From the IMG/VR virus record IMGVR_UViG_3300001765_000033, positions 30,583 to 94,582 of that record: 64,000 nucleotides of DNA. One strand, 5' to 3'. The DNA is from a virus. The notes beneath the pieces are model-generated. The model searched no databases. It had not been told where the DNA came from and saw nothing but the letters and a program-made list of their open reading frames with translations. The position numbers and the translations under genes are program-made. Below, one piece after another: positions 7,977 through 56,909 of the stretch; positions within the stretch are counted from its first letter, which is position 1; every line of letters starts with the position of its first letter.

Positions 7977-9272
7977 CTAAGATTCATTAGCAATTTTTTC
8001 GTGCCAATTTATTTTATCTTGGGCTGTCCTACGAATCGACTGATTAGGATGATTTAGCGCAGCTTTCCAATGTTCCATTTTTGAATTTTTTTGACTCACT
8101 GCAGATAATGCGGTTTCGTGATCTTTATTTTTAAGAGCATCATGTATGTTTTCATCTGATGCATTAGGATGCATCGCTGCAATATGTCTTACTCTTGGAG
8201 TGTCATTTTTTAATGCTTCTTTGATGTTATCGCTATTTGCGTGTATGTTACTTATGGCACCAATTTTAACCATTTGATCAGAATCCTTTAGAGCTTTGCT
8301 TATATTCTCTGGCGTAGCATTTTTATGTTTTGCTGCCCATCTGCGAACCAGTGGAGCTTCATCATCTAATGCAGCATGGATATGTGAACCAGCTATACTA
8401 GGATGCTCTAAGGTCGCTAATTTTTGGTACGAATTCCCAGTTTTTAATGCTTTATGTAAGGTTTCATCCGTGGCATTATGATTATATTTTGCTGGTGTAT
8501 TGTCGTCATCATATAAATCCTCGTGCTTAGTGTGTATAGCATCTTCATGGTGAATTGGATAGTGATGTTTCGTGAATTTATCTACAGCAGCATTAGCAGT
8601 TTCTGGAAATGCTCCATATTTTTTCTGCTCTCGATGATATGAAATATTATTACCATCGTCAGATACATGTTTTTTGATTAAAGTTCTACCTAAAATATCT
8701 TTAGAATCGTATTCACCATGTTCGTTTGGTTTTGCGTCCTTATGAACATGTAATGCAGACATAGTACCATGATGCAACTCATGAGTCATTGCTTCCCATG
8801 CTGGACCAGGAACATAACCATCTTTTACCGCTTTTGCACAAGAATCCCAATGAGTGCCAGTTGATGCAGAGGCTACTTCGCCTTTGTGTCTGCTGATTAC
8901 AAGTTTTGAATTTCCATCTTCTGATTTATTTCTATGATAATGACCATAAGAATCAACAATATGTTGTGGAGCTTTTGCTTGTCCAAGATATTTTGTCGTC
9001 TTTACAGTTCTCCCTGATTTTAATATCACATGTTCATTATCTTCATGACTTTTATCTCCCTTTGAATGAATGTACTCTTTAACCGAATCTGGCATATCAT
9101 TCTTAAAAGGAATCTCAATATGATGATTTCCTTTACCAAAAACTTTATCATGCATTTTCTGTGTTTTTGAATCAACTTTGGTATCTAGTAGATGTTTTGT
9201 TTCTTTTTCGCCGATAGCTTTATGCAAATCTTTGGTTGATTCTGACAACTGAATATATTCTTTGAATCTCAT
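7977..9272 (-). CDS. Putative internal head protein with CTS-like leader and C-terminal helical (LRV/HEAT-like) repeats
   Basis: Starts MRFKEYIQLSE; His-rich; ~23-aa repeats such as HPNASDENIHDALKN. Confidence 0.6.
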   Translation of the reverse strand: MRFKEYIQLSESTKDLHKAIGEKETKHLLDTKVDSKTQKMHDKVFGKGNHHIEIPFKNDMPDSVKEYIHSKGDKSHEDNEHVILKSGRTVKTTKYLGQAKAPQHIVDSYGHYHRNKSEDGNSKLVISRHKGEVASASTGTHWDSCAKAVKDGYVPGPAWEAMTHELHHGTMSALHVHKDAKPNEHGEYDSKDILGRTLIKKHVSDDGNNISYHREQKKYGAFPETANAAVDKFTKHHYPIHHEDAIHTKHEDLYDDDNTPAKYNHNATDETLHKALKTGNSYQKLATLEHPSIAGSHIHAALDDEAPLVRRWAAKHKNATPENISKALKDSDQMVKIGAISNIHANSDNIKEALKNDTPRVRHIAAMHPNASDENIHDALKNKDHETALSAVSQKNSKMEHWKAALNHPNQSIRRTAQDKINWHEKIANES

Positions 9273-9274
9273 TT

Positions 9275-9719
9275 TTAATCCTTTGGAATATTTAGTACAA
9301 TATTATTTTCCCAATAACTTTTCTTACCAATATAAGCAGATTCGCCTTTTTTAACCAAAGGTTTCCATGCTTCTGATCTTTTTTTGCTTTTCTCCACGTC
9401 AAACCCCTTGTAGTCATCACCAACCCACTGATGCTTATGATGCCATATCCAAGGGTCTTTTAACGCCTTGGTGGTCTTTGTGGTGCCATCTGTATTGACT
9501 TTAACGCTGTCACCAACTGTCGGTTCTGGAGCAGTATCAAAATCATGCGATTTGATAAATGACATTGAATTTGTTTTTCTGTCATGCTTTACTGCGGCAT
9601 AATCAAAATCTTTTGGTAAATGTGTGTTCGTAGTCTTTATGGACGTAAGTACAACCACCAATATCTTTACCAATTTTCTTTTCTTTTATTTCTGCAAGGT
9701 ATTCTTTGAATGATTTCAT
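9275..9719 (-). pseudogene. Frameshifted gene: CTS-like leader plus a domain resembling the non-catalytic repeat of phosphorothioation-associated putative methyltransferases
   Basis: ATG 9719 reads MKSFKEYLAEIKEKKIGKDIGGCTYVHKDYEHTFTKRF* (stop 9603-9605). The rest (HLPKDFDYAAVK..HDFDTAPEP..DPWIWHHK..YIGKKSYW) is in another frame; the break is near 9621-9627. Confidence 0.65.
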
Positions 9720-9723
9720 TTAG

Positions 9724-9754
9724 TATAAATATTAAACAACTTATTATATTTATC
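9724..9754. promoter_or_regulatory. Face-to-face late promoters: TATAAATA (+, 9724-9731) and GATAAATA (-, 9747-9754)
   Basis: Both motifs lie in the 40-bp gap between divergent genes. Confidence 0.7.
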
Positions 9755-9759
9755 CTAAC

Positions 9760-10425
9760 ATGAAAACTTTATACGATTTCTTAATTGAGGCTATAGAACA
9801 TAAAATAGCTGGTCAAATAGGCTCAGCAACAACTCAAGTTGCCACAACTGGCGGGTCATTTGAAAAATCAGGAGCAGAACTTAAAGATAAAATTCCAGAT
9901 AACGGAAGAGTATTAAATTATGGTGCTGGATTAGATCATACGACAGAAGCATTAAAAAAAGGTCTTGGTGGAAAAGATTCTAAGCATAAAGTAGAAGATT
10001 ACGAACCATTTCCAGAAAGAAGAAAATCTAAACCGACATATATTAAATCTGAAGATATTCCTACAGATTCACATCATGCGGTAGTTTGCCATAACGTAGT
10101 TAATGTTGTTGACCGTGAGACTAGGGATCATATTATGCACCACATATTTTCTACAACAAAAGAAGGTGGACATATTCATATCATCGCCAGAAAATTTAAA
10201 GGTGATGTTGATGGTGCAAAAAATGCTAGACCAGGAAATGAAAAAGGTTCTTTGTTAATTAAAAAAGGCAGTCAGGAAGTTTACCAAAAAGGTTTTGATG
10301 GTAGTGAACTTAGTGATTATGTAAAAGACCTGGCAGAAAAGCACGGTCATAAAGTAGAAGTATCTAAACTTGGTTTTGGTGCATCTGGAGTAAAAATTAA
10401 AATGATTAAAAAGAATAAGGAATAA
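9760..10425 (+). CDS. Class I SAM-dependent methyltransferase-like protein with CTS-like leader
   Basis: Starts MKTLYDFLIE; VLNYGAG (motif I-like), DYEPFP, VVCHNVVNVV, YQKGF..EL. Confidence 0.65.
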   Translation: MKTLYDFLIEAIEHKIAGQIGSATTQVATTGGSFEKSGAELKDKIPDNGRVLNYGAGLDHTTEALKKGLGGKDSKHKVEDYEPFPERRKSKPTYIKSEDIPTDSHHAVVCHNVVNVVDRETRDHIMHHIFSTTKEGGHIHIIARKFKGDVDGAKNARPGNEKGSLLIKKGSQEVYQKGFDGSELSDYVKDLAEKHGHKVEVSKLGFGASGVKIKMIKKNKE

Positions 10426-10428
10426 GTC

Positions 10429-11313
10429 ATGTTATCATTCAAAGAATTTCTGCAAAATGTAATTGTTGAAAATTTGCACCCAGAATTGCAGAGTGTTGTA
10501 ACTTCAACAAATTCTAACATTTCAAAACAAACTCAGTTATCTAAAAAGATAAAAGATTTGACTTCTCGTGGAGAATCTACTGGTATTGAAGGTAATATGC
10601 CAAAAGGATCATCGAGAGCATATCTACAACATAAAGACGAACACCACACTGTGATTGATGGTAAACCTGCTTCATTTAAAACGGGAACTAAAGTAGCTAT
10701 AACCGCCACTTTAGACAAACATCACAATAAAAAAGCATATGATGGTAAGAATTTAGGTCAGATGCAAAATGAGGCTGAAGGTGGTGATCATTGGGCAAAT
10801 AAAAATTACAGAATTCTTACTAAACATGATGATAAAAACGAATATACTACAAATAAAGAATCTGGAATATTTCCACCTTTAGTTGATCATGATCATGATC
10901 ATCATAATTGGACTCATGTTGGGCATTCAAGAGATATTAAAGGTCCAGAATTTAAAAAACTGACTAAATGTAAGTCTCATCCAGAGGGCATATCACATAA
11001 AGATTTTTGTGAATCTATGGAGAGATTTCATAATAGAAATAATGGTAAACATTGGACTCAAAGTGAAGGAAGAGAACATCAACTCGATCATATAGATAGT
11101 CATCCATTGGTTCAAAAATTTCAAGATTATCATGGGAACACTGGAGCACCACCACATGATTATAGACAAATTAAAAACATGGGAGTTTTTGAGCATCCAG
11201 ATGGCTCAAAGCACATTGTTGCTAGAGATCATGGATTTAATTCTGACGTTCAAAGAGCGTATCAAGTAGCAAATAAAAACAGAAATATACACGAATTTAA
11301 TAGATATAGATAA
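10429..11313 (+). CDS. Protein-kinase/APH-like fold protein with CTS-like leader
   Basis: Starts MLSFKEFL..IVE; KGSSRAY, TKVA, QNEAE, HDYRQIKNMG, IVARDHGF in kinase order. Confidence 0.55.
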   Translation: MLSFKEFLQNVIVENLHPELQSVVTSTNSNISKQTQLSKKIKDLTSRGESTGIEGNMPKGSSRAYLQHKDEHHTVIDGKPASFKTGTKVAITATLDKHHNKKAYDGKNLGQMQNEAEGGDHWANKNYRILTKHDDKNEYTTNKESGIFPPLVDHDHDHHNWTHVGHSRDIKGPEFKKLTKCKSHPEGISHKDFCESMERFHNRNNGKHWTQSEGREHQLDHIDSHPLVQKFQDYHGNTGAPPHDYRQIKNMGVFEHPDGSKHIVARDHGFNSDVQRAYQVANKNRNIHEFNRYR

Positions 11314-11314
11314 T

Positions 11315-11710
11315 ATGGAATACTTAAAAGCAATTATTGATATATTCACAAATAATATAGGAATATTAAATAATATTATATTAGCTGGTTTCTTTTTATT
11401 TTTCGTTTATATAATAAACAAAGCAAGCAAAGATAAACATAACAAATTAAATTGGGCTGATATGTTTTTGGATTCTAAAACCCAAAAAATGTCATTAACA
11501 AAAGTTGGAAATTTCTGGGGTATTGGAATTTCAAGCTGGATAGCTATTTACTTTGCTCAGAAAATCCCAGCAGATAAAATTGCAGATTTGTATTCCTATG
11601 TTTTCGGAATTTGGATGGCATTCCTACTGGGTTCATATTCTGTATCGTCTGTTTTGAAAACAAAAGATGGAAGTGTAACTGAAATAAAAAAAGAAAGTGA
11701 AAAAGAATGA
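11315..11710 (+). CDS. Membrane protein, putative holin
   Basis: Three hydrophobic segments and a charged C-terminal tail. Confidence 0.5.
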   Translation: MEYLKAIIDIFTNNIGILNNIILAGFFLFFVYIINKASKDKHNKLNWADMFLDSKTQKMSLTKVGNFWGIGISSWIAIYFAQKIPADKIADLYSYVFGIWMAFLLGSYSVSSVLKTKDGSVTEIKKESEKE

Positions 11711-12201
11711 CTTGTAATGTAGAACAAATTGGTCAACTTTTGTCATATGACGGTTCACCGGTGTCATTTGATGCTCTAGGACAACATGCATTCAAAATGG
11801 ATTTTGCAAAAATTCCAAACACTATGTTTTTTCTGCAAGGTGTTACATTTCCTGGACTTTCAGTTTCCATTGTAGAACAAGCAACACCACATCTGGATTT
11901 TCAGGAAATAGGAACAAAAGTTAGATATGATCCTTTGATAATCCATTTCTTAGTAGATGCAAGAATGAGAAATCATTTTGAAATAACTAATTGGTTAAAG
12001 GAAATGACAGAAGCAAGAAATCAACGAGAGTATGTTTCTGATGCTTTGATGACCATCAATGACTCCATGCAAATAAGATTCATTGATGCTTTCCCTGTTA
12101 GCATCGGAAGTATTGAATTTGTTTCAAATCAAGATTCGTTGAAATATATCCAATGTTCAGCAACATTTAATTTTGACTGGTTTGAAATAATTCCAATCTA
12201 A
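11707..12201 (+). CDS. 3: Tail completion / sheath stabiliser, T4 gp3-like
   Basis: IPNTMFFLQGVTFPG, YDPLIIHFLVD..MRN, RFIDAFPVSIG; precedes uvsY-uvsW. Confidence 0.8.
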   Translation: MTCNVEQIGQLLSYDGSPVSFDALGQHAFKMDFAKIPNTMFFLQGVTFPGLSVSIVEQATPHLDFQEIGTKVRYDPLIIHFLVDARMRNHFEITNWLKEMTEARNQREYVSDALMTINDSMQIRFIDAFPVSIGSIEFVSNQDSLKYIQCSATFNFDWFEIIPI

Positions 12202-12217
12202 ATTCTTGATGTTTGTA

Positions 12218-12418
12218 AAATAAATTCTAAAACACCAGAATTACTGAGCGAAGCGAAGGCGAACGAAGTGAGCTAAGAATCTCATTTGCAAACTAGAATT
12301 TCTGGTTCAATTTCTGAACACAATTACCACCAAAAATATAAAAGTTTCTAATTGGTTTCTTAGCTCACTTCGTTCGCCTTCGCTTCGCTCAGTAATTCTG
12401 GTGTTTTAGAATTTATTT
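12218..12418. repeat. Perfect 62-bp inverted repeat with 77-bp AT-rich spacer; candidate replication origin
   Basis: 12218-12279 is the exact reverse complement of 12357-12418; lies in the ~500-bp gap before uvsY. Confidence 0.9.
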
Positions 12419-12549
12419 AAAATCATTTCTAGAAACCATTAAAATTTATCACTTACGACTAAATATATTCTCTTAATTAGAGGGGACTGCGAGAGCTTAA
12501 CAGGTTCTATGGTTCTTGTCAAGCACTTTCTTCAAATTGACCATACTTC

Positions 12550-12581
12550 CCGATGAACGGCAGTGATTAGCCGATGAACGG
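12550..12581 (+). repeat. Direct repeat CCGATGAACGG x2, 21-bp period
   Basis: Copies at 12550-12560 and 12571-12581. Confidence 0.75.
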
Positions 12582-12710
12582 TAAACATTTGTAAGTTTCT
12601 GTAAGGCCGCCTTTTTGCTGTTTCTAGTGTTTTCCATAGGAATTCTGCTTTTCAGGTTAAAATAGGACACTAAATAGGAAGTCAACCAAACGTGACTTGA
12701 GGACTAAATT

Positions 12711-13154
12711 ATGAAACTTACCATTGACGACATCATTGCAGAGTGGAAAGCAGACAACACTATCGATGAAACCAAGCTACCGTCAGAGCTAATGAAGACA
12801 CCACTGCTTCATTCAAAATATCTTGAGGTCTATCTTCAGATCAAAAGAAAATTCATTGCAGCCACAGCATCCTACAACAAGCTAAAATTCCTAAGAAAGA
12901 AATATTTCAGAGGCGAAATGACTCGGGAAGAACTTGATGCTCAAGGATGGGGCCAATATCAGGGTCTGAAAATGTCTCAGACCGAATTCAATTCAATGTC
13001 AGAAATTGATCCTATGCTTAGTGACGAATGGGTCAAAGTTGAGTACCTAAAGAGTCTTGTTGAAGGTCTTACCTACATTCTCAAAGAAATCCAAAACAGA
13101 GGTTATACCATAAAAACGATGGTAGAGTACAACAAAATGATGATGGGTGGCTAA
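12711..13154 (+). CDS. uvsY: Recombination mediator UvsY
   Basis: EWKAD..ID, TPLLHSKYL, I.NRGYTIK; adjacent to uvsW. Confidence 0.9.
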   Translation: MKLTIDDIIAEWKADNTIDETKLPSELMKTPLLHSKYLEVYLQIKRKFIAATASYNKLKFLRKKYFRGEMTREELDAQGWGQYQGLKMSQTEFNSMSEIDPMLSDEWVKVEYLKSLVEGLTYILKEIQNRGYTIKTMVEYNKMMMGG

Positions 13155-14682
13155 AATGACAGACAATGTTACCATAACAAAGTTCAATGAAGTCTGGTTT
13201 TATGTCGAATGCTCTACTGACATAAAGTACGAATTGAATGATCATTTTCAGTTTGAGGCTAACAACGCCAAATATCATCCATTGGTAAAGCTTGGTCGAT
13301 GGGATGGTATGATCAGGATGTTCAATCCTCAAAAATCATTGCTACACATCGGATTGCTGCCACTTTTAGAAGATTTTTGTCAGGCTAGAGAGTACACCTT
13401 ATCGTTTAAAAATCATCCAGAGTTTGGCAGTCCAGTTTATGTTTCTGTGCTACCTGATCAAGATGTTATCGACTATGTTGATTCTTTGGACATTCATTCT
13501 GGTGGTAATAAGATAACTCCATATGATTATCAGTATGATGCTATTAAATTGGGAGTATTGAAGCGAAGAGCAGTATGCATTAGCGCAACAGGTTCTGGCA
13601 AAAGTCTCATGATTTACGGCATATCCAGACATACACTTTCATTGGGATATAAGGTTTTGATCATTTGTCCTACGGTTCAGCTTACCGAACAAATGGCATC
13701 AGATTTTGCTGATTACTCCAGCCACAACGGATGGGATGCAGAATCAAATATTCACAAGATTCATTCTGGAAAAGAAAAAGAGTCAAATAAATCTATTACG
13801 ATTTCTACTTGGCAGAGTCTGTTAAAGATGCCAGCCGAATATTTCAATAAATTTTCATGTGTTATCTGTGACGAAGTGCATCTGGCATCTGGCAAATCCA
13901 TAACTGATATTATGGAAAAATGCACAGATGCAAATATTAGACTTGGATTTACTGGTTCCTTGGATAAGAGTTTGACAAATAAACTTCAGATTCAGGCGTT
14001 ATTTGGAAAAATAACTAAAGTATCATCATCAAGAGATTTGATTGATAAGGGGCACTTGACAGAAATCAAAATATCTGCTATAATGCTTGATTACTCTGTA
14101 AATACCAAAGCAGCATTAAAGTTATTCCTTGATAAAGACAAGAAAACTGCATATCAGAGAGAAATTAAATTTTTAACTGCGCATGAAAAGAGAAATAAAT
14201 TCATTTCAAATTTGGCTGCTTCTACAAAAGAAAATACTTTGGTATTTTTTAACTTAATTGAGCACGGTAAAACATTATTTGAGTTGATAAAAGAAAAAGC
14301 ACCAGATAAAAAAGTTTACTTTATTGACGGTCATGTAGATGTAGATATTCGTGAGGAATATAGAGAAGAAATTGAAGCTAGGAATGATCTTGTTATCGTA
14401 GCATCTAGCCAAACTTCAGCAACTGGAGTTAATTTTAAAAATCTGCATCACATTGTTTTTGCTGCTCCGACAAAATCTTTGGTTAGGGTCTTACAATCGA
14501 TTGGTAGAGGTCTGAGAAAATCAAAAGGAAAAGATATAGTTAAGCTATATGACATTGGTGATAATTTAACGAAATCGAAAGTTAAAAAGAACCATACTTA
14601 TAATCATTTTATTGAAAGGTTGGCCATTTATGCTAAAGAAGATTTTTCCTACAAACTTATTGATTTGGTTATCGAAAAATGA
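13147..14682 (+). CDS. uvsW: DNA helicase UvsW
   Basis: WDGMIRMF, ATGSGKS, DEVH, QSIGRGLR. Confidence 0.95.
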   Translation: MAKMTDNVTITKFNEVWFYVECSTDIKYELNDHFQFEANNAKYHPLVKLGRWDGMIRMFNPQKSLLHIGLLPLLEDFCQAREYTLSFKNHPEFGSPVYVSVLPDQDVIDYVDSLDIHSGGNKITPYDYQYDAIKLGVLKRRAVCISATGSGKSLMIYGISRHTLSLGYKVLIICPTVQLTEQMASDFADYSSHNGWDAESNIHKIHSGKEKESNKSITISTWQSLLKMPAEYFNKFSCVICDEVHLASGKSITDIMEKCTDANIRLGFTGSLDKSLTNKLQIQALFGKITKVSSSRDLIDKGHLTEIKISAIMLDYSVNTKAALKLFLDKDKKTAYQREIKFLTAHEKRNKFISNLAASTKENTLVFFNLIEHGKTLFELIKEKAPDKKVYFIDGHVDVDIREEYREEIEARNDLVIVASSQTSATGVNFKNLHHIVFAAPTKSLVRVLQSIGRGLRKSKGKDIVKLYDIGDNLTKSKVKKNHTYNHFIERLAIYAKEDFSYKLIDLVIEK

Positions 14683-15158
14683 CAAATAGCCCATTCGTAT
14701 GTATTAAATTACAATCTGGAGAAACATTATTTGCCGAAGTTATTAGCAACACCAAAGAAAAAATAAGAGTATTGCATCCGATGCTTACTAAAACTTCTGT
14801 GATGCAAAACAAACAAGATGGCTTTATGCTGTCCAATTGGATTCCGTGGGTAGACGAAGTAGAATTTGATATTTCTTTATTCCAGATCATTTATATCGGC
14901 GCATTGAAAGAAATGTTTATTAAATTTTATGGCTCAAATGTCATTAAAGAAGAATTTAATAAAATAAATGCTAGGGGGTTTGCTAGGGTAGAAGATGGTG
15001 AAAATCCTAAAGTTGTTACCGCTGAAATTGTTGAAGAAATGAGAAACTTACTTGATTTGTATTCGATGAAATATAATTTAGATTCCGACGAATTTAAAGA
15101 AAGATTTTCTTTGGATGAAATTGATACCGACACCGATACTAAAAAAGTTTTACATTAA
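14679..15158 (+). CDS. Conserved hypothetical protein (Sm-like N-terminus)
   Basis: IKLQSGETLFAEV..WIPW; between uvsW and gene 55. Confidence 0.6.
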   Translation: MTNSPFVCIKLQSGETLFAEVISNTKEKIRVLHPMLTKTSVMQNKQDGFMLSNWIPWVDEVEFDISLFQIIYIGALKEMFIKFYGSNVIKEEFNKINARGFARVEDGENPKVVTAEIVEEMRNLLDLYSMKYNLDSDEFKERFSLDEIDTDTDTKKVLH

Positions 15159-15166
15159 GGGGTTCA

Positions 15167-15712
15167 ATGGCATCAAAAAATTATGTAAATAATAAGGACT
15201 TTTTAAACAGCCTTATTGCTAGAAAAGAAGAAAATGAAAGGTTGGCGCTAGAAGGAAAAGAAAAAGCACCGATCAGCAGATATCTAGGTCATGTTGTTAT
15301 GGAGATTGCTAGACGATTGGCATACCGACCTAATTTCATAAATTATAGCTATCGTGAGGATTTGATTGGTGATGCTATCGAAGTTGGTCTAAAAGGACTT
15401 GACAAATTTGATTGTTCTTATGAAAATCCTTTTGCTTACATCACTCAAATCATGTGGAATGCCTTCATTCGCAGAATACAAATTGAGAATGGACAGCAGG
15501 CGATTAAGGGTGCTTTAATAGCCGATATGCCACTTAGTGAGTTGTTTGATACCCAAGAGCATGACGAAGATGGCATTCAATATTCATCGCATATCATGAG
15601 CTACCTAAGAGATAATAATTTTTATCATGCATCGGTTGAAGTCTCTGACGTAAAAACAATCGAAGTAAAAGATGGTAAAAAGCCTAGTGGTTTAGAAGTA
15701 TTTTTTGAGTGA
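15167..15712 (+). CDS. 55: Late sigma factor gp55
   Basis: NYVNNKDF, RPNFINYSYREDLIGD, NPFAYITQI; C-terminal LEVFF. Confidence 0.95.
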   Translation: MASKNYVNNKDFLNSLIARKEENERLALEGKEKAPISRYLGHVVMEIARRLAYRPNFINYSYREDLIGDAIEVGLKGLDKFDCSYENPFAYITQIMWNAFIRRIQIENGQQAIKGALIADMPLSELFDTQEHDEDGIQYSSHIMSYLRDNNFYHASVEVSDVKTIEVKDGKKPSGLEVFFE

Positions 15713-35644: not shown

Positions 35645-35679
35645 GATAAATATTGGAAGCAATAACTATTATTACTCCA

Positions 35680-36246
35680 ATGAAAACTTTCTCAGAATTA
35701 AAATCGTATCTACTTGAGCATATCAGAACTCCAAAGGCAGATTCTCCTAAATTCCAAAAACTAGACGACTCTTATCTTAAATCCAGACCTTTGAAGCTTG
35801 AAACTAAGTCATTCAGGTTTCATATCAAAGATCATTCTGACCCAAAAGATAAGACTACTGGATTGGTTACTGTGCATGATTCAGCTGGAAATCATGTTGG
35901 TTCAATGTCGTATAGCAGACTGCAAAAAAGTGGTCATGTTATTTCTGAATTGACAAAAGATAAAAGCTGCAAACATGATCACATGATGGCAGAGGTAATG
36001 TCGCACTTGAATGATCATCATGGATATAAATTCTTTGGTTCACATACGGTTTCATCTGATGGTGAAAGACCTTGGGCTTCTTTGGCTAAACATTACAATG
36101 TCCACGTCTTAGAGGGAAAAACTGCATTGAAAAAAGTCAAATCTAGCGTCACGCCAGAGTCTATCATTAAAGGCGATCATGTTCAGAAAGGTCTAAGTCC
36201 AGATAGCGAACTTCTTAGACAGTATTACCTTGGGGCTAAAAAATGA
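35680..36246 (+). CDS. GNAT-like protein with CTS-like leader
   Basis: MKTFSELKSYLLE after GATAAATA (35645-35652); S..G...W..L GNAT-type C-terminal motif; His-rich. Confidence 0.5.
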   Translation: MKTFSELKSYLLEHIRTPKADSPKFQKLDDSYLKSRPLKLETKSFRFHIKDHSDPKDKTTGLVTVHDSAGNHVGSMSYSRLQKSGHVISELTKDKSCKHDHMMAEVMSHLNDHHGYKFFGSHTVSSDGERPWASLAKHYNVHVLEGKTALKKVKSSVTPESIIKGDHVQKGLSPDSELLRQYYLGAKK

Positions 36247-36914
36247 GTTTAGTTCATTTAGTATTGGAAGCTATAGCTCATCAAAAATCTCTAGATTATG
36301 AGAAAAGTATAGCTAAAAAACTTTATGATAATGGACGTGGCGTTAATTCTGATGGTGCAGGACATAATTCAAAACGAGCAGATGCCACAATAATTGCTGA
36401 TGATGGTTCACATCACAGTCTTGAGATTAAAAAAAGTCACTCTGCCAGAATGACTCAATTATCGATTGCACATACTAAAGAAAAAGGTTGGCATATTCCA
36501 GTTATCAGTAGACTATCAAAACCAGCCTATGCTAAACACGTTGAAAAATCTGGAATATTGCAAAAACTAAATGATACTTGGGGTGATCCTACTGGCAAAG
36601 AAAAGCCAAAAGATTTATATCATGATGATGTTAATGGTGCTGAAGGTGTCGGCGCACATTATGGCAAAGACAAAAAGACCCCATACATTCATATTGGTGG
36701 TGGACATGGATTTTTTAAGACAACCGATGATGATCCTGCTAAAATAGGAGCACCAAAAATTTCTGGTGATGGCTGGAGACTTCGCGCTAGAGTCAAATCT
36801 TTAGGTAGAACTAAGGCTGATGGTACAGCAGACAAAATGTTTATCATAAATAGCACGATATCTAAAAAAGGTTTGGGTAGATCACATTTATCTTTGGACG
36901 CTGACCCTACCTAA
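36243..36914 (+). CDS. PD-(D/E)XK nuclease-like protein, possible internal head protein
   Basis: MSLVHLVLE leader; YE, RAD, SLEIK motifs. Confidence 0.55.
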   Translation: MSLVHLVLEAIAHQKSLDYEKSIAKKLYDNGRGVNSDGAGHNSKRADATIIADDGSHHSLEIKKSHSARMTQLSIAHTKEKGWHIPVISRLSKPAYAKHVEKSGILQKLNDTWGDPTGKEKPKDLYHDDVNGAEGVGAHYGKDKKTPYIHIGGGHGFFKTTDDDPAKIGAPKISGDGWRLRARVKSLGRTKADGTADKMFIINSTISKKGLGRSHLSLDADPT

Positions 36915-36955: not shown

Positions 36956-38434
36956 ATGTCAAAATGTAATAATTGTGGTGGCGACAATGTAAAAAATCTT
37001 GGTATGCGATTGATTGGTAAATCTCAAAAATTTAAATTCCAATGTCAAGATTGTGGTTACACTGAAATGTTGACGAAGTATCAAACTAAGAGTGTTCATC
37101 GATATATCATTTCTTCAATCCAAAATGATACTGAGGTCAACGAAGATTTTTTCAAAACTCTAAAATCTTTCGCAAAATTAAAAGATGTGGAGATTATGTT
37201 ACTGCCAACAAAATATCTAGGCCATTTAAAAACCGCAAATTGGGACGATCAATATCAAAATTATATTGTCAATACAGAAAGAAATATTGGTAATAGCATT
37301 AAGGTTCTTGGTGATCTATATCTACTTGCGTCATTGGAGAATCCAATTTCTGGTTTTGATGCGGTATCTAAGGGCAGAACGGTTATCGTTGGTCATGGGC
37401 AGTATCAAATGAAATCATTGCCGACAGCGGTTAATTCGCATCCTTTGATGCTGACTTCAACTGGATCGGTGACACATCCAAATGTAAATTCTAATACTAA
37501 AGTAGGCAAGAAAGCTATATTCAATCATAGTTATTCCGCATTATATATTTCAGTATTAAATGAGGGAATGTTAGATGAAGAATTTCATATTAGGGCATTA
37601 ATGTGGGACGGTGAGGGATTCTATGATATTGATGGATATTATGTAGATAATGCAGTAAAGAAATTAAAACATATTTCTGCATTAATTACTGGCGATGAAC
37701 ATATTATTGAAATTGATCCAATTGCTGCAAAATCTGTATATGGTAAAAATGGTATTGTTGAGAAACTAAATCCAGAATTTATTATTAGGCATGATGTATT
37801 ATCTTCAAATGCAATATCTCATCATAATAATGGGTTGATAGTTAAGCAAAATCTAATGAATGCTGCTAATGAGGATGATTTGCAAAAAGAATTAGATATT
37901 ACTTGCAAATTTATTGTAGATACTACTCCAAAATATTTGACCTCATATATTGTCGCGTCGAACCATCATGACCACCTAGACCTTTGGTTACAAAATGTAG
38001 ATTCAAATTTAGATAAGAAAAATGCCAAGTTATATCATTGGTTCTTGTATAAGAAATTGAGCGATGACAGTTATTATAAAACTGCATTTGAGACATACTT
38101 TAGATTCAAATACCCAAATGTCAATAATGTTGAATTTCTTGATAGAGATAATCCTGTTTTGATTCACGATATCGAAGTGCATCATCATGGTGATTTATCT
38201 CATAGTGGCGGCAGGGATGGTAAAAATTACTTCCCAAAACATACGCATAAAGTAGTTCATGGACATTACCACTCACCATCTGTAAATAAAGGCTCGTATG
38301 CTGTTGGCACTATGTCTAAATTTAAATTATCATATACTTCTGGACTTACTTCGTGGATGCACTCAAATGTGATTATCTATCCAAATGGAAAACGCCAACA
38401 CGTTAATATTATCAATGGTCGCTGGTTTGTCTAA
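36956..38434 (+). CDS. T5 A1-like metallophosphoesterase/nuclease with N-terminal Zn ribbon
   Basis: CNNC..CQDC, ISSIQNDT, STGSVT, GKKA.FNH, GDEH, HD, SNHH, HGD, HGHYHSP. Confidence 0.7.
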   Translation: MSKCNNCGGDNVKNLGMRLIGKSQKFKFQCQDCGYTEMLTKYQTKSVHRYIISSIQNDTEVNEDFFKTLKSFAKLKDVEIMLLPTKYLGHLKTANWDDQYQNYIVNTERNIGNSIKVLGDLYLLASLENPISGFDAVSKGRTVIVGHGQYQMKSLPTAVNSHPLMLTSTGSVTHPNVNSNTKVGKKAIFNHSYSALYISVLNEGMLDEEFHIRALMWDGEGFYDIDGYYVDNAVKKLKHISALITGDEHIIEIDPIAAKSVYGKNGIVEKLNPEFIIRHDVLSSNAISHHNNGLIVKQNLMNAANEDDLQKELDITCKFIVDTTPKYLTSYIVASNHHDHLDLWLQNVDSNLDKKNAKLYHWFLYKKLSDDSYYKTAFETYFRFKYPNVNNVEFLDRDNPVLIHDIEVHHHGDLSHSGGRDGKNYFPKHTHKVVHGHYHSPSVNKGSYAVGTMSKFKLSYTSGLTSWMHSNVIIYPNGKRQHVNIINGRWFV

Positions 38435-50457: not shown

Positions 50458-50730
50458 ATGGCTAGTGCAAAAACTTTTGTTATCCCTTCATCGCCTGCTG
50501 ACCTCAAAAAGCTTAAAGATGCTATGGTTGAAGGTTCGGGTGCGTTGATTCGCATTGATTCCGAAAAAGAATTCCTAAAGGATATCGCAGAAAAGCTATC
50601 AGAAGAACTGGAATTACCAAAGTCAGTTATTGCGTCTTTGATTCGATATTATCACAAATCAAATTTTGAAGCCAAAGCCACGGAATTTGACGATTTTAGT
50701 ACCCTTTGGGAAGAAGTTTCTAAGGTCTGA
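50458..50730 (+). CDS. dsbA: dsDNA-binding protein, T4 DsbA-like
   Basis: Helical, KDI......E, YHK.NF; near rnh. Confidence 0.7.
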   Translation: MASAKTFVIPSSPADLKKLKDAMVEGSGALIRIDSEKEFLKDIAEKLSEELELPKSVIASLIRYYHKSNFEAKATEFDDFSTLWEEVSKV

Positions 50731-50734
50731 AATC

Positions 50735-51778
50735 ATGACAAGAACAACTTGGAAAGATCATGAGCCAGAGTTTAATCCAATTGATTATAAAGGGTCAATG
50801 ATTGCTAATCTGAAGTTCTATAATTCTGAAGTTGAAGATGATCTAAAAAAAGATTGGACATTATCTTATTGGAAAGCACAAGGAAAATCTACTGCTTACA
50901 TGGATAAAGTACATCCTGCGTCTTTTGCTCAACTTGGTGTTCTTGTCAGAATTATGGAGCGTGGATATGGTATTGAAGATAATCATCAAAAATTCATTGA
51001 TGATGAATATTTAAGAATTGCCGCTAGAGTTCGTAAACCAAAAGATGAAACTAAGGTTGTTGAAAAAATATCAACTGAAGATAAAGTAGAAAAAGCAGCA
51101 GCCGATTTGATGTGTGATATTGATGCTGAATTTGATCAAATTTCTGAGCACGGCACTCGAAAATATGATTTGAATAAACATCTTGATCGTTCAAAACTTT
51201 TATTGGCTATTTCTGATATCCTGCTTAAACGATATCAACCAAAGTTAGAGGAATTGAAAATTGCTCTCGATGGTTCTGATAAACAAATCAAAGAAGGCTA
51301 TTCTCAATATTCAAAAAAGAATTTGAGGATGCTTTGTGATTTTGCAGAATCAATCGTCAAAACATGCGAGTCAGCAACGCCAGTTGTTAGGACAAGAAAA
51401 TCAAAACCAGTTAGCATAAGTAAGATGGTATCTAAAGTTGTATATCTTAAAGAATATCCAGCTTTACAGCTTAAATCGGTAAACCTAGAGTCTTTGGTAG
51501 GTGCCAAAGTTATCTATCTTTTTAACGTGAAAGTTAGAAAGTTAATTAGGTATGAAGTCGCCGATGGAGAAAAGCTTACGGTTAAAGGTACGACCTTGAT
51601 TGGGTATGATGAAAAGAAATCTTTTGGTAAAACTATCAGGAAACCTGAAGTGTTTTTCCAAGGAATTAATTCTATGGCTCAAAGAGCTATGGACAAAAAG
51701 TGTTTTGATGTCGCTGGTGTTAATGCAAATGTGTCAGGCAGAATCAATGGTGATATGATTATTTTAAAAGTGTTTTGA
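50735..51778 (+). CDS. Conserved T4-like hypothetical protein
   Basis: VKGTTLIG, KTIRKPE, GRIN.D.IIL. Confidence 0.7.
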   Translation: MTRTTWKDHEPEFNPIDYKGSMIANLKFYNSEVEDDLKKDWTLSYWKAQGKSTAYMDKVHPASFAQLGVLVRIMERGYGIEDNHQKFIDDEYLRIAARVRKPKDETKVVEKISTEDKVEKAAADLMCDIDAEFDQISEHGTRKYDLNKHLDRSKLLLAISDILLKRYQPKLEELKIALDGSDKQIKEGYSQYSKKNLRMLCDFAESIVKTCESATPVVRTRKSKPVSISKMVSKVVYLKEYPALQLKSVNLESLVGAKVIYLFNVKVRKLIRYEVADGEKLTVKGTTLIGYDEKKSFGKTIRKPEVFFQGINSMAQRAMDKKCFDVAGVNANVSGRINGDMIILKVF

Positions 51779-51788
51779 AAGGTAAATT

Positions 51789-52082
51789 ATGACAAGAATT
51801 GAAGCAGTAGCAAAAGCGCGAGAAGCAAGGGCGGCTAAGAAATTGGCGCGAGACGCGAATCCACAGGCCACTGAAACGACTCAGGTTGAATTGATTGAAG
51901 ATTCTGATGGCATTGAGGCTGCTATTGCAGAAGCAAGCTTAGAGGGGCTTAAAATCAGTCTGTGGCGTGAATGTATGGTTGCGAATATGCTCAATGGTCG
52001 GTTGTTACATCCTGCTCAATTTGAGTCTATAAGTAAATTCGCCGATGCTTATGTCGAACTAGCTATGGAGAAATTTGAATGA
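51789..52082 (+). CDS. Hypothetical protein
   Basis: AKAREARAAKK N-terminus. Confidence 0.6.
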   Translation: MTRIEAVAKAREARAAKKLARDANPQATETTQVELIEDSDGIEAAIAEASLEGLKISLWRECMVANMLNGRLLHPAQFESISKFADAYVELAMEKFE

Positions 52083-52996
52083 TTTTAATTGATCTAAGTC
52101 AAATTGTATGGATGAATACATACAAGTTCTTTGGCAAAGATGGGGGCAAGATAGAATTAGTTGATGATACTAATTCAATGGATATTTTACGAACTGCTAT
52201 GTTATCCAGCATTTTGTTCTACAAAACCAAATTCAAAGAGTATGGTAAGGTAGTAATTTGTTGCGATAGTAATGATGGTTATTGGCGATTATCGGTATCA
52301 AAATACTACAAAGCAGCCCGCAAAGAAAAACGAGAGGCTTCTGTTGTTGATTCAAAACTGGTAGCAAAATTTATTGATTCATTCAAGCAAGAGTTGATTG
52401 ACAATTTTACATTTCCAGTGATTGAAGTTAGTAAATCAGAAGGCGATGATGTGATTGCTGTAATTTCTAAGTGGGCACAATCAAATGATTTAACTGAATC
52501 TTTATTTGACTCAGAAGCAAAGCCAATCATGATCATTTCTGCAGATCAAGATTTTCTTCAACTTGGTTTATTGAATAAAAATATCAAGCAATATTGTCCA
52601 CGAAAAGGCGAGTTGATTAAAGCAGATAAGCCTTTAGATCAATATCTGATCCAGCACACGATTGCTGGAGATTCGGTAGATTGCATTTGCAATGTGATTT
52701 CTCCTGAAAATTCACTTTTCGATCATATCAAGCAAAAATCAATTACTAAGAAAATTCTAGAATCTTTTTATGAAAAAGGTATTGATGCTTGTGAGAATGA
52801 TTTTCAGCGAGAGAATTATATCAGGAATCAGAAGCTGGTCGATTTCAATTTTATTCCAAAAGAAATTTCCGATAGAATTATTGAGGCATATATATCATAT
52901 CAAGTGAATGGTTCACTACAGAAGATTATGAATTATCTAATAAAGCATAAATGTGGCAAAAAATTAATATCTTCCTACGGAGACTTCGTTATATGA
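52079..52996 (+). CDS. rnh: T4-type RNase H / 5'-3' exonuclease
   Basis: ILIDLSQ, YWR, YKA.R, EGDD.I, S.D.DF.QL, GD..D. Confidence 0.93.
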   Translation: MILIDLSQIVWMNTYKFFGKDGGKIELVDDTNSMDILRTAMLSSILFYKTKFKEYGKVVICCDSNDGYWRLSVSKYYKAARKEKREASVVDSKLVAKFIDSFKQELIDNFTFPVIEVSKSEGDDVIAVISKWAQSNDLTESLFDSEAKPIMIISADQDFLQLGLLNKNIKQYCPRKGELIKADKPLDQYLIQHTIAGDSVDCICNVISPENSLFDHIKQKSITKKILESFYEKGIDACENDFQRENYIRNQKLVDFNFIPKEISDRIIEAYISYQVNGSLQKIMNYLIKHKCGKKLISSYGDFVI

Positions 52997-53466
52997 AAAC
53001 TTATTCCAATGTTAACCCGAAATTTATTCCAGAATTTCTAAAAATTATTGAGACTGCCCCAGATCAAAAGGCAAAACTTAAAGAATTTGGCGCGATTCCG
53101 CCGTTAAATTTTATTTTAGCAATGAATTTTGATGATAGGGTCGAATTCGATTTGCCAAACGGCAACCCTCCTGAACCGGAAGGTAGGGTTGTAGGTCATT
53201 CGGACCTGTTCGCCCCGGCAGCAAGTTCACTTCGTCGCATTCTAGTATGTTTAAAGAGTGACCCTAGATTACCTCGTTACAAAAAAGAGGCGGTTTTTTT
53301 GCAACTTTTGGAAGGATTGAATCCAGAGGAAGCTAAGATCGTTGTGTTCGCAAAAGATAAGGCGCTAAATGAGCTATATCCTTGGCTTACTCGTGAATTG
53401 GTAGCTAGTTCGTGTCCTAGTTTAGTTTATTCAAATACTACTTGGTTAGATAAGACCGAACAGTAA
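52993..53466 (+). CDS. Conserved hypothetical protein
   Basis: FDLP.G.PP, KKE..F.QLLEGL.P.EA. Confidence 0.7.
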   Translation: MKTYSNVNPKFIPEFLKIIETAPDQKAKLKEFGAIPPLNFILAMNFDDRVEFDLPNGNPPEPEGRVVGHSDLFAPAASSLRRILVCLKSDPRLPRYKKEAVFLQLLEGLNPEEAKIVVFAKDKALNELYPWLTRELVASSCPSLVYSNTTWLDKTEQ

Positions 53467-53472
53467 ATACAA

Positions 53473-53745
53473 ATGCCTACATACACATACAAATGTTCAA
53501 ATTGTGAATATGAAAAAGATCGTGTTTTAAAAATTTCAGAATACGATATTCCATGCAATGAGCCATGTCCAGAATGTGGTTCAGAAAAAAGTATTAGCAG
53601 AGTAATTTATGCGACAGGATTTGGTGATGTTCACCGAATGAAAATGCATAAAATTGATCCAGATTGGCGTGATGTTTTACGCAAGGTGCAGAAAACCACT
53701 CCTGGTGCTAATCTGGATCGATCATCGACGTTAGTTCCAATTTAA
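53473..53745 (+). CDS. FmdB-like Zn-ribbon protein
   Basis: MPTYTYKCSNC...CPECG. Confidence 0.85.
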   Translation: MPTYTYKCSNCEYEKDRVLKISEYDIPCNEPCPECGSEKSISRVIYATGFGDVHRMKMHKIDPDWRDVLRKVQKTTPGANLDRSSTLVPI

Positions 53746-53778
53746 GAAAGGTAGCTTCTAAGATTTCGGTAGATTCAT

Positions 53779-53805
53779 GGTTACACAGGTTACACAGGTT
53801 ACACA
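53779..53805 (+). repeat. Tandem repeat (GGTTACACA)x3 upstream of phoH
   Basis: Three exact 9-bp copies. Confidence 0.85.
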
Positions 53806-53834
53806 ATAATAACAACATAAAGACTGGAAATATA

Positions 53835-54659
53835 ATGGCACGATCACCCGCGACACCACGTAAAACAACATCAACACAAGTGGATAGAGTAGCAAAAAGA
53901 TTGACTAAACAACAAGCTGCTCTTGAAAAACAGATGATAAATGACATGAATTTGAAAGTTGTGGCTAATGGGGGTAGGATGCCGAAACTTAGTGATCTTA
54001 GGAAATTATCTCCATTGACAGATATGCAAGCGAATATTTTTGATTCTTTTGAGAATGACCCATCTGATGTTTTAGGTCGTGTATTTTTTGGTTCGGCTGC
54101 GGTTGGCAAATCTTTTTTGGCAATTTATTTTGGGTTAAAAGAAATTCTTAATCCAGACTCAATTTATAAGAGGCTGATAATTATCAGATCAGCTGTGCCC
54201 GGAAGGGCACAGGGTTTCCTTCCCGGTGAAATTGATGCTAAAGAGGAAATTTACGCTGCTCCTTATCATAGTATTTGCGCTGAATTGACAAATAACAAAA
54301 TGGCGTTTGAAAAGCTATCTGAAGCAGGTTTGATAGAATTTCGGTCAAGTTCATATCTAAGAAGCTTGACCTTTTCGGATTCTTTTATAGTGTGCGACGA
54401 AATGCAAAATTTTTCGTGGCAAGAAATTTTCACTGTTATTACTCGACTAGGTAAAAATTCTCAGATCGTTTGTTGTGGTGACGGGCATCAGTGTGACCTA
54501 ACTACCAACAAATATGATATGTCTGGATTAAGTGCATTTTTAGGTGTTACTTATAAAATGCCTGCATTTAGGCATTTCAAATTTACTCCAGATGATATTT
54601 GTAGGTCGGATTTCGTGAAGCAATTTGTGCTTGCGTGTCAATCGGAAGGCATTAATTAG
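53835..54659 (+). CDS. phoH: PhoH family ATPase
   Basis: GSAAVGKS, GFLPG, DEMQN, ITRLG, GD..Q.D, DI.RS..V. Confidence 0.92.
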   Translation: MARSPATPRKTTSTQVDRVAKRLTKQQAALEKQMINDMNLKVVANGGRMPKLSDLRKLSPLTDMQANIFDSFENDPSDVLGRVFFGSAAVGKSFLAIYFGLKEILNPDSIYKRLIIIRSAVPGRAQGFLPGEIDAKEEIYAAPYHSICAELTNNKMAFEKLSEAGLIEFRSSSYLRSLTFSDSFIVCDEMQNFSWQEIFTVITRLGKNSQIVCCGDGHQCDLTTNKYDMSGLSAFLGVTYKMPAFRHFKFTPDDICRSDFVKQFVLACQSEGIN

Positions 54660-55886
54660 ACATTAAATTCTACGATTTTTTCTTCAATAAAATTCAATAT
54701 ATCCTGTGGGTTACATCCAGAAAATGTTTCTGTGTAACCTACTTTTTTATATTCTTGTTCTTCTTGGGGTATTAAAAAATCTGAAAATTTGTCCTTAATG
54801 AAGTATTCCATACCAAGTGCAAAAGAACCTTCAAATGCTTTTTCATATAAAATTTCACATTTAGTAATAAAAGCAGGAGAATATCTTTCACTTATAGATT
54901 CTTTTGATGTTATGCCGACTTTAATTTGATTGTTTGGCATTTACTACATCTGTTTCTGAATATCTATCGACGAAAGAAAATCTGCTACGTTTTCTGTTGA
55001 TTTCGTCTTTTTCATCTTGAGGTTTAGAATTTAAATTATCTTGCCATTTATCTTGTCTTGCTTGCCAGATTTTTGTTCCTTCAACTTCTCCGTGTTTCTC
55101 AATACATTTTTCTAAAGAGAATGTTGATTGTCTTTCTGATATTTTTCTTATAGCCTCTTCTTCGGTCATGTTATGTCTAGACATCCAATATTCTTTGCAC
55201 GTTACATTTTTATATGCTCTTTCGTCTTTTGTGGTAGATGAATAATATGCATTTGCGTTGTATTTCTGTCTTGCGGATACTTCTGCGATTGCTTGATCTA
55301 ATGAATATCCACGAATTGTCCAATAATCTACTGTTAAATTAGAACATTGTTTTGTCTTTTTTAATTCTTCTTCTGATACTGTTTTCATGAAGAATTTAAA
55401 CGCTAAATCTTTCACAACTTCTGGTAGGTAATTTCTCTTTAACCAGAATTCCTCAAATTCTTTTTTCTTATTTCTGTTTTTATCTTTAGAAGATAGTAGT
55501 AATTTATATGTTTCTATTGTTCGGTTGTCTCCGATTTCATCTAAAAATGTTGGTGGATTTGGTAGAAAATGTTTTGTTATTTCTTCATAAAACCCTTTTT
55601 GTTTAGCCATAATATACGCTGAGTTATCATTTGTATAAAAATCCTTACTACATTTAAATTTCGATGCTATTTCTTTTAAATTATCAAAAGATAAATCTCG
55701 ACCTACCGCATGAGTTGATCTTATAATATTTCTTTTTAGTTTTAGTGATATTGCTTTATTTGTAATTTCGTATGCTAATTTGTTGTATAATTTATTTCTT
55801 ATAAATTTTAATGGAACATCTTGTCCATACAATTCAACTAAAATTTCAATCTCTGCGTCCGACCACTGTGTTCTGGTATTTGTCAT
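54656..55886 (-). pseudogene. Hef-like homing endonuclease gene broken into two frames (54921..55886 and 54656..54940)
   Basis: ATG 55886 after AGGAG; YW..RG and FSLE.CI.KHG..EG...W repeats; the IKVGIT..E..GYTE nuclease portion is out of frame. Confidence 0.6.
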
Positions 55887-56035
55887 TTGATATAAACTCC
55901 TAAATATATTGATATACAGGGACAACGGAATTTAAACTCCTTCGCTGAAAAAAGTATCTGACCACTTTTTTCTAACCTGTACTTATATTTAGCATTTTCA
56001 ATTCTTCACTCTTTTCGCTACGCTTCACAAAAAGC

Positions 56036-56065
56036 TTGACACTTTCGCAAATTCTGTGTTACAAT
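56036..56065 (+). promoter_or_regulatory. Sigma70-type early promoter TTGACA-N18-TACAAT with TG extension
   Basis: TTGACA 56036-56041; TGTGTTACAAT 56055-56065. Confidence 0.8.
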
Positions 56066-56071
56066 ACATCC

Positions 56072-56329
56072 ATGAACAAAACTCAAGCCCAAATCTCCGA
56101 AATTCTCTACAATCTTGACCCTATGAACACAGGGTGTGTGGAGAATTCTATGTTAGACGAATACGATGCTGAAGCAGAGGGAATCGCACACTATCTTGAA
56201 AAAGGTCATCCTCTGAAGTATGCTATTGTTTTAGTTTTTGAGTATAATTTTTGGATAGGTTGTCTCAATGATCACCAAATCGAAGCAATCATGAAAGAAA
56301 TGACTTCAATAAACAACGAAGAAATTTAA
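56072..56329 (+). CDS. Early hypothetical protein (possibly leaderless)
   Basis: ATG 6 nt after the -10; IL..LDP...DEYD.EA motif. Confidence 0.6.
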   Translation: MNKTQAQISEILYNLDPMNTGCVENSMLDEYDAEAEGIAHYLEKGHPLKYAIVLVFEYNFWIGCLNDHQIEAIMKEMTSINNEEI

Positions 56330-56531
56330 ATCTTCTGACTAAAATTTTTGACGAAGTTGATCCAATCTCGATTGCCAATGAAAATCAATCCGAATATAGG
56401 AATCTAGCTGGTTTCACTGTCTGTAATTACGATGATAATCCTGAAGCTGGAATTATTTCTGCGATAAATAAATCAATTGTCGAGTTATTCGATGTTGATT
56501 TTATTTTAACCGAAGAAGAAGAAAAGCTGAT

Positions 56532-56909
56532 ATGTCAAAAACTTATAGGGAACTTATTGAATCGCTAAATTCCAAGAAATATGGGGATTGGGATTTTGTA
56601 AATACTAAACACGGCAAAGAACGTGATGGCGAAAGATCATCAGATGTTTCTGATTCTGATTGGGATGATCACATTCAAAAAATAATCAAAAAAGTTGCTG
56701 GAACTAAACACGGCTCTGAAAAAGGTGGTCGAGAAATTATGTTTCATCAGGCTAAGAAACGATTAGCGACTGTTATGAATGTTGATCAACAAGCTAAACA
56801 ACTTCGATGTATTACAGTTATGCCAAAGAAAGATAATCCGATACCAAAAGCAGGCACTAAAAAAGTTATGGTTGAGGATTATTCTCATTTGGAATGTATC
56901 GAAATCTAA
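56532..56909 (+). CDS. RelE/BECR-like fold protein with CTS-like leader
   Basis: MSKTYRELIE; TKHGKERDGER ... CITVM; GATAAATA at 56463-56470. Confidence 0.5.
   Translation: MSKTYRELIESLNSKKYGDWDFVNTKHGKERDGERSSDVSDSDWDDHIQKIIKKVAGTKHGSEKGGREIMFHQAKKRLATVMNVDQQAKQLRCITVMPKKDNPIPKAGTKKVMVEDYSHLECIEI

Follow-up and report, generated by a model that had tools for sequence, protein, structure and literature searches.

Internal proteins (Ips) of bacteriophage T4 and the other T-even phages are reportedly carried into the assembling head by a short capsid targeting sequence, as Mullaney and Black are said to have described in 1996. Capsid targeting has so far been described for T-even coliphages and, more loosely, for giant phages. 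In T4, a stretch as short as the first ten residues of IPIII is enough for packaging; residues 4 and 7 matter most for targeting and residues 8 and 10 for processing, with cleavage by the head protease gp21 after L/I-x-E (PMC9026906). The T-even Ips share nothing but their leader (PMC3012670, PMC12373910), and the T4 tag has already been suggested as a general route by which T4-like phages load varied proteins (PMC9026906). T4 Alt is a head-packaged, gp21-processed and ejected ADP-ribosyltransferase that acts on the host before phage transcription, and in the giant phages phiKZ, 201phi2-1 and SPN3US a diverged gp21-type protease cleaves many head proteins behind a Glu; these are ejected as well and include enzymes such as the virion RNA polymerase (PMC9026906). 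Here we describe genes with T4-type leaders in a 64,000-nucleotide stretch of viral DNA (the window), which comprises bases 30583-94582 of one 94.6-kb virus contig of 36% G+C (IMG/VR record IMGVR_UViG_3300001765_000033). Six of them probably encode capsid-targeted, enzyme-like internal proteins.

A first-pass annotation had placed such leaders on seven genes, and all seven N-termini are present: c1 (7977-9272) and c2 (9275-9719) on the minus strand, and c3 (9760-10425), c4 (10429-11313), c5 (35680-36246), c6 (36243-36914) and c7 (56532-56909) on the plus strand. We looked for an N-terminal propeptide of 10-19 residues with determinants at positions 4 and 7 (targeting) and 8 and 10 (L/I-x-E, processing). 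Six candidates carry one. The 10-residue leaders of c2 (F4, Y7, L8, E10) and c3 (L4, F7, L8, E10) match directly, and c4 has F4, F7 and L8 with a predicted cut after I-V-E at residue 14. The 11-residue leader of c1, ending in L-S-E, and that of c7 (Y5, L8, E10) are shifted by one residue, and the 13-residue leader of c5 ends in L-L-E. Overall, these leaders have an aromatic residue or Leu at position 4, an aromatic residue at 7, L/I at 8, and Glu at 10 or a second hydrophobic-x-E a few residues on. They fit the experimentally defined determinants of the T4 tag (PMC9026906), which bears out the likeness that had been claimed. The seventh leader is not credible: the N-terminus of c6 aligns with an internal stretch of longer homologues and scores -12.3 bits on the matrix described below.

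We trained a position matrix on 37 distinct leaders from other IMG/VR loci (L010-L057), none of them from the window, and applied it to every possible start codon of the contig, 2,325 candidates in all. At 19.1 bits, the starts of c2 and c4 share the top rank, followed by c1 in fourth place (8.6 bits), c5 in sixth (4.3 bits) and c7 in twelfth (2.2 bits); on the same foreign-trained matrix the ten-residue tag of T4 gets 8.3 bits. In a BLOSUM comparison with the T4 tag, c7 ranks first in the contig (score 26) and c3 third (score 22). Scores of at least 2, 4 and 8 bits are reached by 6, 4 and 3 gene starts, respectively, against 0.55, 0.21 and 0.03 for shuffled N-termini. Not one of 2000 shuffles reached the observed counts, so the leader is enriched over random N-termini, and among 497 internal Met windows a single one gets to 4 bits. 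These figures bear directly on a chance or composition effect in a low-GC genome, which we consider highly improbable. Only seven short N-termini are involved, and finding a hydrophobic-x-E among the first 14 residues is nothing unusual in itself, but the shuffles and internal windows argue against chance, as does the recurrence of the motif in dozens of homologues and in unrelated families of other phages. Chance is rejected at the level of the set and still applies to c6 alone.

The strongest argument that the leader exceeds chance is its conservation across unrelated protein families. The families of c1, c2, c3 and c4 share it despite unrelated folds, and it is also kept in the small number of relatives identified for c2 and c5 (two homologues in the case of c5). 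Nearly all of the 45 c1 homologues begin M-x-x-F-K-x-Y-x-x-L-S-E, followed by a conserved S/A-T-K-D-L. The c3 family (44 homologues at 40-73% identity, of which 35 were aligned) has the N-terminal consensus M-K-x-F-x-x-F-x-x-E, and then a linker that varies in length and sequence before the conserved domain. The c4 family comprises 134 representative clusters at the 50% level, and most full-length relatives have the leader motif, a variable spacer, a hydrophobic-x-E and a conserved L-H-P-E-L, with E14 nearly invariant. The family of c6, found on 48 IMG/VR contigs, consists of proteins of about 325 residues, and its other members do have leaders. These are of at least four types, one short and T4-like and three of 16-27 residues, all ending at the same E|G-R-G junction. 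Swapped leaders joined to a fixed cut site are as expected of a removable address.

Leader-bearing proteins of this type are also found in purified virions. On contigs carrying the c6 family, neighbouring genes bear leaders as well; they include a DUF6267 protein (Pfam E-value 5e-95) and a 546-587-residue cytidylyltransferase-plus-P-loop protein. A gp21-type protease is encoded on 5/5 long related contigs tested, at 48-54% identity, and one of the five is a complete 160.7-kb genome with terminal repeats in which the leader cluster lies beside a GH19 endolysin, as c7 does here. The cytidylyltransferase family corresponds to T4-GC190 of Sullivan et al. 2010 (PMC3037559). In purified virions of cyanophage S-SM1, T4-GC190 was detected with 25 peptide counts and T4-GC1455 with 7 (PMC3037559, Table S8), as were T4-GC1453, 1454, 425 and 426, which are encoded in the same cluster, downstream of gp41 (PMC3037559). 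S-SM1 gene 190 starts M-K-K-F-S-A-F-L-N-E, gene 192 (T4-GC1455) starts similarly, and Syn9 gp184 combines the same leader with a Pfam cytidylyltransferase domain. When the S-SM1 genome was scanned with the matrix, genes 190 and 192 were the two best annotated gene starts (ranks 1 and 3 of 5,194 starts), and both are among the 41 virion proteins, a coincidence with a chance of about 3 in 100. The report on S-SM1 mentions neither internal proteins nor proteolysis (PMC3037559). A leader on T4-GC190 would explain the presence of a cytidylyltransferase in that virion proteome.

The same data weigh on the idea that the motif is no capsid address at all and has some other use common to late proteins, for instance in efficient translation initiation on leader-poor late mRNAs, as a degron or as a docking helix for another machine, with the proteins working in the cytoplasm of the cell that makes them. 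The first genes of the transcription units lack a Shine-Dalgarno sequence and have AT-rich starts, M-K-T/S starts are common in AT-rich genomes, and a methyltransferase or a cytidylyltransferase has plausible cytoplasmic roles. Against this stand residue-level conservation at the very four positions on which the T4 tag depends, a hydrophobic-x-E site that always follows, the variable linker behind the leader in the c3 family, the convergence of different c6-family leader types on one E|G-R-G site, and the physical presence of two leader-bearing proteins in S-SM1 virions. We therefore regard a function other than addressing as unlikely.

The source of the window is, as judged from its genes, an uncultured marine T4-like myovirus with the full T4 machinery for loading and trimming internal head proteins. 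Its major capsid protein (gp23) shares 60% identity with the Pelagibacter phage HTVC008M protein and 55-56% with the counterparts in Methylophilales phage Melnitz and T4-like cyanophages, and its gp41 helicase is about 50% identical to cyanophage gp41. A T4 head module with terminase, sheath, tube, portal, gp21-type protease, gp22 and gp23 lies upstream of the window, where the gp21-type head maturation protease and the gp22 scaffold (contig C1:16663-18653) match phrog_207 at 4e-63 and phrog_237 at 2e-64. The phage's own gp23 has L-Q-E|A at the position of the T4 gp23 cut. Its gp21 has F-L-I-E near the N-terminus; T4 gp21 has L-I-E near its N-terminus (PMC9026906). With the c1-c4 and gp41-c6 regions as queries, megablast gave no match among cultured phages, tblastn found no homologues of the cargo proteins in HTVC008M and no match to c4 in cultured phages, and scans of IMG/VR for close relatives returned nothing for c1 and c5 and a single weak match for c7.

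The candidates are arranged as putative late genes. Four transcription units, c2-c1, c3-c4, c5-c6 and c7, have c2, c3, c5 and c7 as their first genes, and the (T/G)ATAAATA boxes that had been claimed as late promoters are found 35-69 nt upstream of all four. The box GATAAATA lies 35 nt upstream of the c2 start (9747-9754, minus strand), 35 nt upstream of the c5 start (35645-35652, plus strand) and 69 nt upstream of the c7 start (56463-56470, plus strand), and TATAAATA lies 36 nt upstream of the c3 start (9724-9731, plus strand). The c2 and c3 boxes are arranged face-to-face across a 40-bp gap. Only 21 (T/G)ATAAATA boxes occur on both strands of the 94.6-kb contig, which is not above the expectation from composition; it is the placement of the boxes, not their number, that is non-random. 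A gp55-type late sigma factor homologue is encoded at 15167-15712 on the plus strand, with 42% identity to the HTVC008M 'late sigma transcription factor', and would be the machinery that reads these boxes.

The product of c4 is a 294-residue protein for which a kinase-like fold had been proposed. An AlphaFold2 model (predicted local distance difference test score, pLDDT, 94; predicted template modelling score, pTM, 0.89) was compared with known structures by two methods. All matches listed by Foldseek are protein kinases or small-molecule kinases of that fold (Rio1, PINK1, FGFR, PsiK), the best at E 2.4e-3 and a TM-score of about 0.3. Nearly all of the 50 rows listed by VIA-align are likewise kinase-like, the exceptions being SAICAR synthetase and PAICS, with a best Z of 7.2 and a root-mean-square deviation of 4.5 over 149 residues. 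Across 48 sequences at 27-53% identity, G60, R63, K88, D244, D267 and G269 are invariant and S61, S62, E117 and N250 nearly so. These residues run in kinase order: a G-S-S-R loop, K88, E117, D244 with N250, and D267-x-G269. The agreement of both structure searches and the conservation of a full catalytic residue set support the proposed fold, and c4 is probably a divergent, active kinase-like enzyme. A weak profile match of c4 to PDB entries 4jlx and 4kb6 (E 0.076) was not adopted, since both structure searches give kinase-like folds. These entries, of porcine cGAS, carry the database label "Uncharacterized protein". Longer, fused relatives of c4 keep a hydrophobic-x-E before the conserved start of the kinase domain, in mid-protein behind another domain, and one relative of 2192 residues contains nine partial copies. 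The fused relatives may be polyproteins cut by the head protease.

The 221-residue product of c3 had been read as a methyltransferase dependent on S-adenosylmethionine (SAM), and its sequence family points to a class I SAM-methyltransferase fold. In Pfam, c3 itself matches PF13489 at E 5e-3, short of the cut-off, but PF13489, PF13649 and PF08242 are present in members of its family, and G55 and G57 of motif I and E82 are invariant in the aligned family. When the family profile was compared with PDB, the best ten of 18 matches were all methyltransferases (E 0.006-0.14). In phages that are not T4-like, the c3 domain occurs without a leader inside Mycobacterium phage Myrna gp97, which is annotated as a tape measure protein, and in an 835-residue protein (gp40) two genes from the portal of Roseobacter phage CRP-738. 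Going by these fusions, the domain seems to reach virions by different routes. A small Cys-containing module, roughly C-W-x-G-Y ... G-x-K-x-K-x-G-x-x-V-P-N-C-V-P, directly follows the leaders in several phages (e.g. 108920-109435 of the 160.7-kb relative) and is inserted once in a c3 homologue.

The helical repeats proposed for c1, a protein of 431 residues encoded second in the putative late operon c2-c1, are confirmed as HEAT repeats by its homologues, many of which carry PF02985, PF12717 or PF13646 (HEAT/Cnd1); c1 itself is under the Pfam cut-off for HEAT (E 5.7e-4). The repeats follow a conserved N-terminal region. One distant relative joins HEAT repeats with an ADP-ribosyltransferase exotoxin domain (PF03496), recalling the packaged Alt of T4.

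The other gene of this operon, c2 (about 148 residues), has its leader where an open reading frame starting at 9719 had been claimed, but that frame is not intact. It ends after 38 codons (frame A, 9603-9719) and resumes in frame B (9275-9673), with a +1 change at a short T run near 9620. In three IMG/VR contigs (L075-L077) intact homologues with leaders form one continuous gene, which implies that the copy here carries a +1 frameshift. The change may be an assembly error, a pseudogene or a programmed shift. c2 matches phrog_16075 at 1e-14 and has local similarity to the C-terminal part of TIGR04096 (model positions 364-462; E 6e-4; 18.7 bits against a cut-off of 150). We considered c2 and c3 as the two halves of this DNA phosphorothioation-associated methyltransferase and rejected the idea: c3 has no match to TIGR04096 at E <= 1, and c2 matches only locally and far under the cut-off.

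For c5, a His-rich protein of 188 residues, the GNAT acetyltransferase assignment survives as a lead only. In the ESM Atlas it is placed with viral GNAT clusters at 0.95 (TM-score 0.64-0.76, aligned from residue 17-19 onward), and it has no match in Pfam.

Composition, a property separate from the leader, singles out the same proteins. When the contig's open reading frames of 60 or more residues are ranked by His content, the top five are c1 (9.5% His), c4, c5, c6 and c3, which upholds the description of most candidates as His-rich. Their His content is 5.9-9.5% over the whole protein and 6.1-9.8% over the mature part, against a contig median of 1.2%, and all seven candidates are basic (isoelectric point 7.9-9.6). 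High His content may reflect pH- or metal-dependent DNA binding. Taken together with leader-bearing proteins of the complete 160.7-kb freshwater or marine relative (108543-117536), which show the same trait, the extreme His content spans 6-13%; the leader-bearing S-SM1 proteins contain only about 1% His.

A basic, His-rich composition like that of DNA-associated internal proteins would also suit proteins that the leaders send to the prohead for a role inside the head, as DNA-condensing, charge-neutralising or core components, with enzyme folds that are vestigial or used in assembly only. T4 IPIII acts in head morphogenesis (PMC9026906), and c1 is a repeat protein lacking a catalytic signature. 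The catalytic sites of the other cargo speak against such a role: K88, E117, D244, N250 and D267 of c4 are invariant or nearly so across its diverse relatives, as are the motif I glycines and E82 of c3, and this conservation implies that enzyme activity is under selection. We assign a purely structural role a low probability.

Taken together, c1-c5 and c7 are probably, with a fair margin of doubt, internal proteins of the T4 kind, addressed to the capsid, trimmed by gp21 and carried into the host along with the phage DNA. In the mechanism we propose, the gp55-type sigma factor would direct transcription of the six leader genes, in four units, from late promoters of the (T/G)ATAAATA type. The first ten or so residues of each product (M, K/L, S/T, aromatic at 4, K, E, aromatic at 7, L/I at 8) would bind the gp22 scaffold core of the assembling prohead, and the gp21-type protease, whose gene lies 30 kb upstream in this contig, would cut after the Glu of the hydrophobic-x-E at residues 10-14. 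Once trimmed, the proteins would stay in the head beside the DNA and pass with it into the next host. The cargo would then comprise the kinase-like c4, the SAM-methyltransferase-fold c3, the HEAT-repeat c1, the possible GNAT enzyme c5 and the small proteins c2 and c7. Packaging, cleavage and ejection in this phage, and a role in host takeover or anti-defence, we infer by analogy.

Several observations weigh against delivery in this form. Conservation in the c1 and c4 families continues past the predicted cut, so the Glu could belong to a folded domain and not to a cleavage site. The matrix scores of c3 (-0.1 bits), c5 and c7 are weak; for c3 the near-zero score comes from a Leu where the training set was forced to Phe, the residue that most aligned c3 homologues have there. 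Some HTVC008M genes show similar M-K-T/S-F starts without a Glu site, and the kinase fold match of c4 is middling (Z 5-7, TM-score about 0.3). T4-GC190 was not detected in the virion proteomes of S-PM2 and Syn9 (PMC3037559). Finally, enzymes such as the methyltransferase could equally act in the cytoplasm late in infection.

How closely the proposed internal proteins resemble the known systems differs from case to case. With T4 Ip1, Ip2 and Ip3 they share a propeptide of about 10 residues with the same key positions, mutually unrelated cargo behind a common leader and basic proteins, and their genes are predicted to be late like those of the Ips. They also share a hydrophobic-x-E site matching the gp21 cut after L/I-x-E, here predicted from the genes. 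The T-even Ips are small (8-20 kDa) inhibitors of GmrSD-type restriction enzymes, whereas the cargo here is 12-47 kDa, enzyme-like and His-rich, in a phage that is a distant marine relative of the T-even phages. Searches of Pfam, NCBIfam and PHROG gave no match of the mature parts to Ip1, Ip2, Ip3 or Alt. The likeness to Ips appears to be functional and confined to the leader, as it is among the T-even Ips themselves. Alt differs from the cargo here in fold and chemistry and has propeptides at both ends. The giant phages differ in having an S/A-x-E cleavage motif, no defined shared 10-residue address, an inner body and much larger genomes. In Myrna gp97 and CRP-738 gp40 the c3-like domain is fused to a structural protein, while c3 has a removable-type leader instead. 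The S-SM1 proteins T4-GC190 and T4-GC1455 come from the same broad group (Kyanoviridae-like), with the same leader type and the same position downstream of gp41 as c5-c6; they have been detected in virions, are not His-rich and have no homologue among c1-c7.

The principle is thus known from T-even phages, and what is new is the marine HTVC008M-like or cyanophage-like lineage, the enzyme-like cargo families, the His-rich signature and the link to an S-SM1 enzyme. A review of cyanomyoviruses reports the alt, gp67 and gp68 genes as absent and does not mention internal proteins, and in the literature searched capsid targeting and cyanophages are brought together only in the T4 review. The T4-type address is conserved almost to the residue in abundant marine T4-like phages, on enzyme-like families with hundreds of metagenomic relatives. 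It offers a simple sequence rule for predicting which marine phage genes annotated as "hypothetical" code for injected proteins, and it yields candidates for taking over the host or countering its defences at once, as well as natural leaders for packaging foreign proteins. We raise a further step only tentatively, as it is less likely to be true than not: the lineage may load its heads with active kinase-like, SAM-methyltransferase and GNAT enzymes that would alter host or phage targets seconds after injection, ahead of any phage gene expression, with shared His-richness as an adaptation for packaging or release, for example through pH- or metal-dependent binding to condensed DNA. In that case there would be two novelties, a kinase packaged in advance and a compositional code for head cargo.

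The seventh candidate, c6, is a His-rich basic protein of 223 residues in the c5 operon and a truncated member of its family, without the leader and the N-terminal domain of about 110 residues found in its homologues. It matches phrog_26930 at 3e-16. A PD-(D/E)XK nuclease fold had been suggested, and D37, E61 and K63 (D ... E-x-K) are indeed invariant in 27 sequences, but the fold was not recovered: the AlphaFold2 model has a pLDDT of only 41, and the family profile has no match in PDB. The possibility that c5 is the missing N-terminal domain of a split c6 gene was rejected on an hhalign probability below 1%. c6 may travel with a partner or stay unpackaged. In the 160.7-kb relative, a paralogue adjoining the c6-family gene shares the long leader form (114304-116345).

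Just after c6, at 36956-38434, lies a gene for a 492-residue His-rich protein (5.7%) without a leader. It has an N-terminal zinc-ribbon-like C-x-x-C pair and, by eye, metallophosphoesterase-like His/Asp motifs. The stretch from gp41 to gp61 is a conserved cluster in Kyanoviridae-like phages (S-SM1 146446-153353, Syn9, S-RSM4, HTVC008M 103767-116426); it encodes six virion-detected proteins in S-SM1, and c5-c6 sit in the same position here. Upstream of the window, the portal protein (contig 12182-15127) has 981 residues, nearly double the usual length, with an insert at about residues 250-355 that matches other PHROG families.

The remaining cargo gene, c7, encodes a basic protein of 125 residues and adjoins a GH19 endolysin gene (both within 56532-57523). 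It matches phrog_17629 at 1e-6. The RelE/BECR-like fold suggested for it was not recovered: c7 has no match in Pfam, and a DUF4258 feature in the Atlas (0.84, rank 30) is sub-threshold. An Atlas cluster of 317-residue GH19 proteins (chitinase class I type) aligns structurally with c7 at a TM-score of 0.60. On the strength of this alignment, a c7-like domain may be fused to the lysin in other phages.

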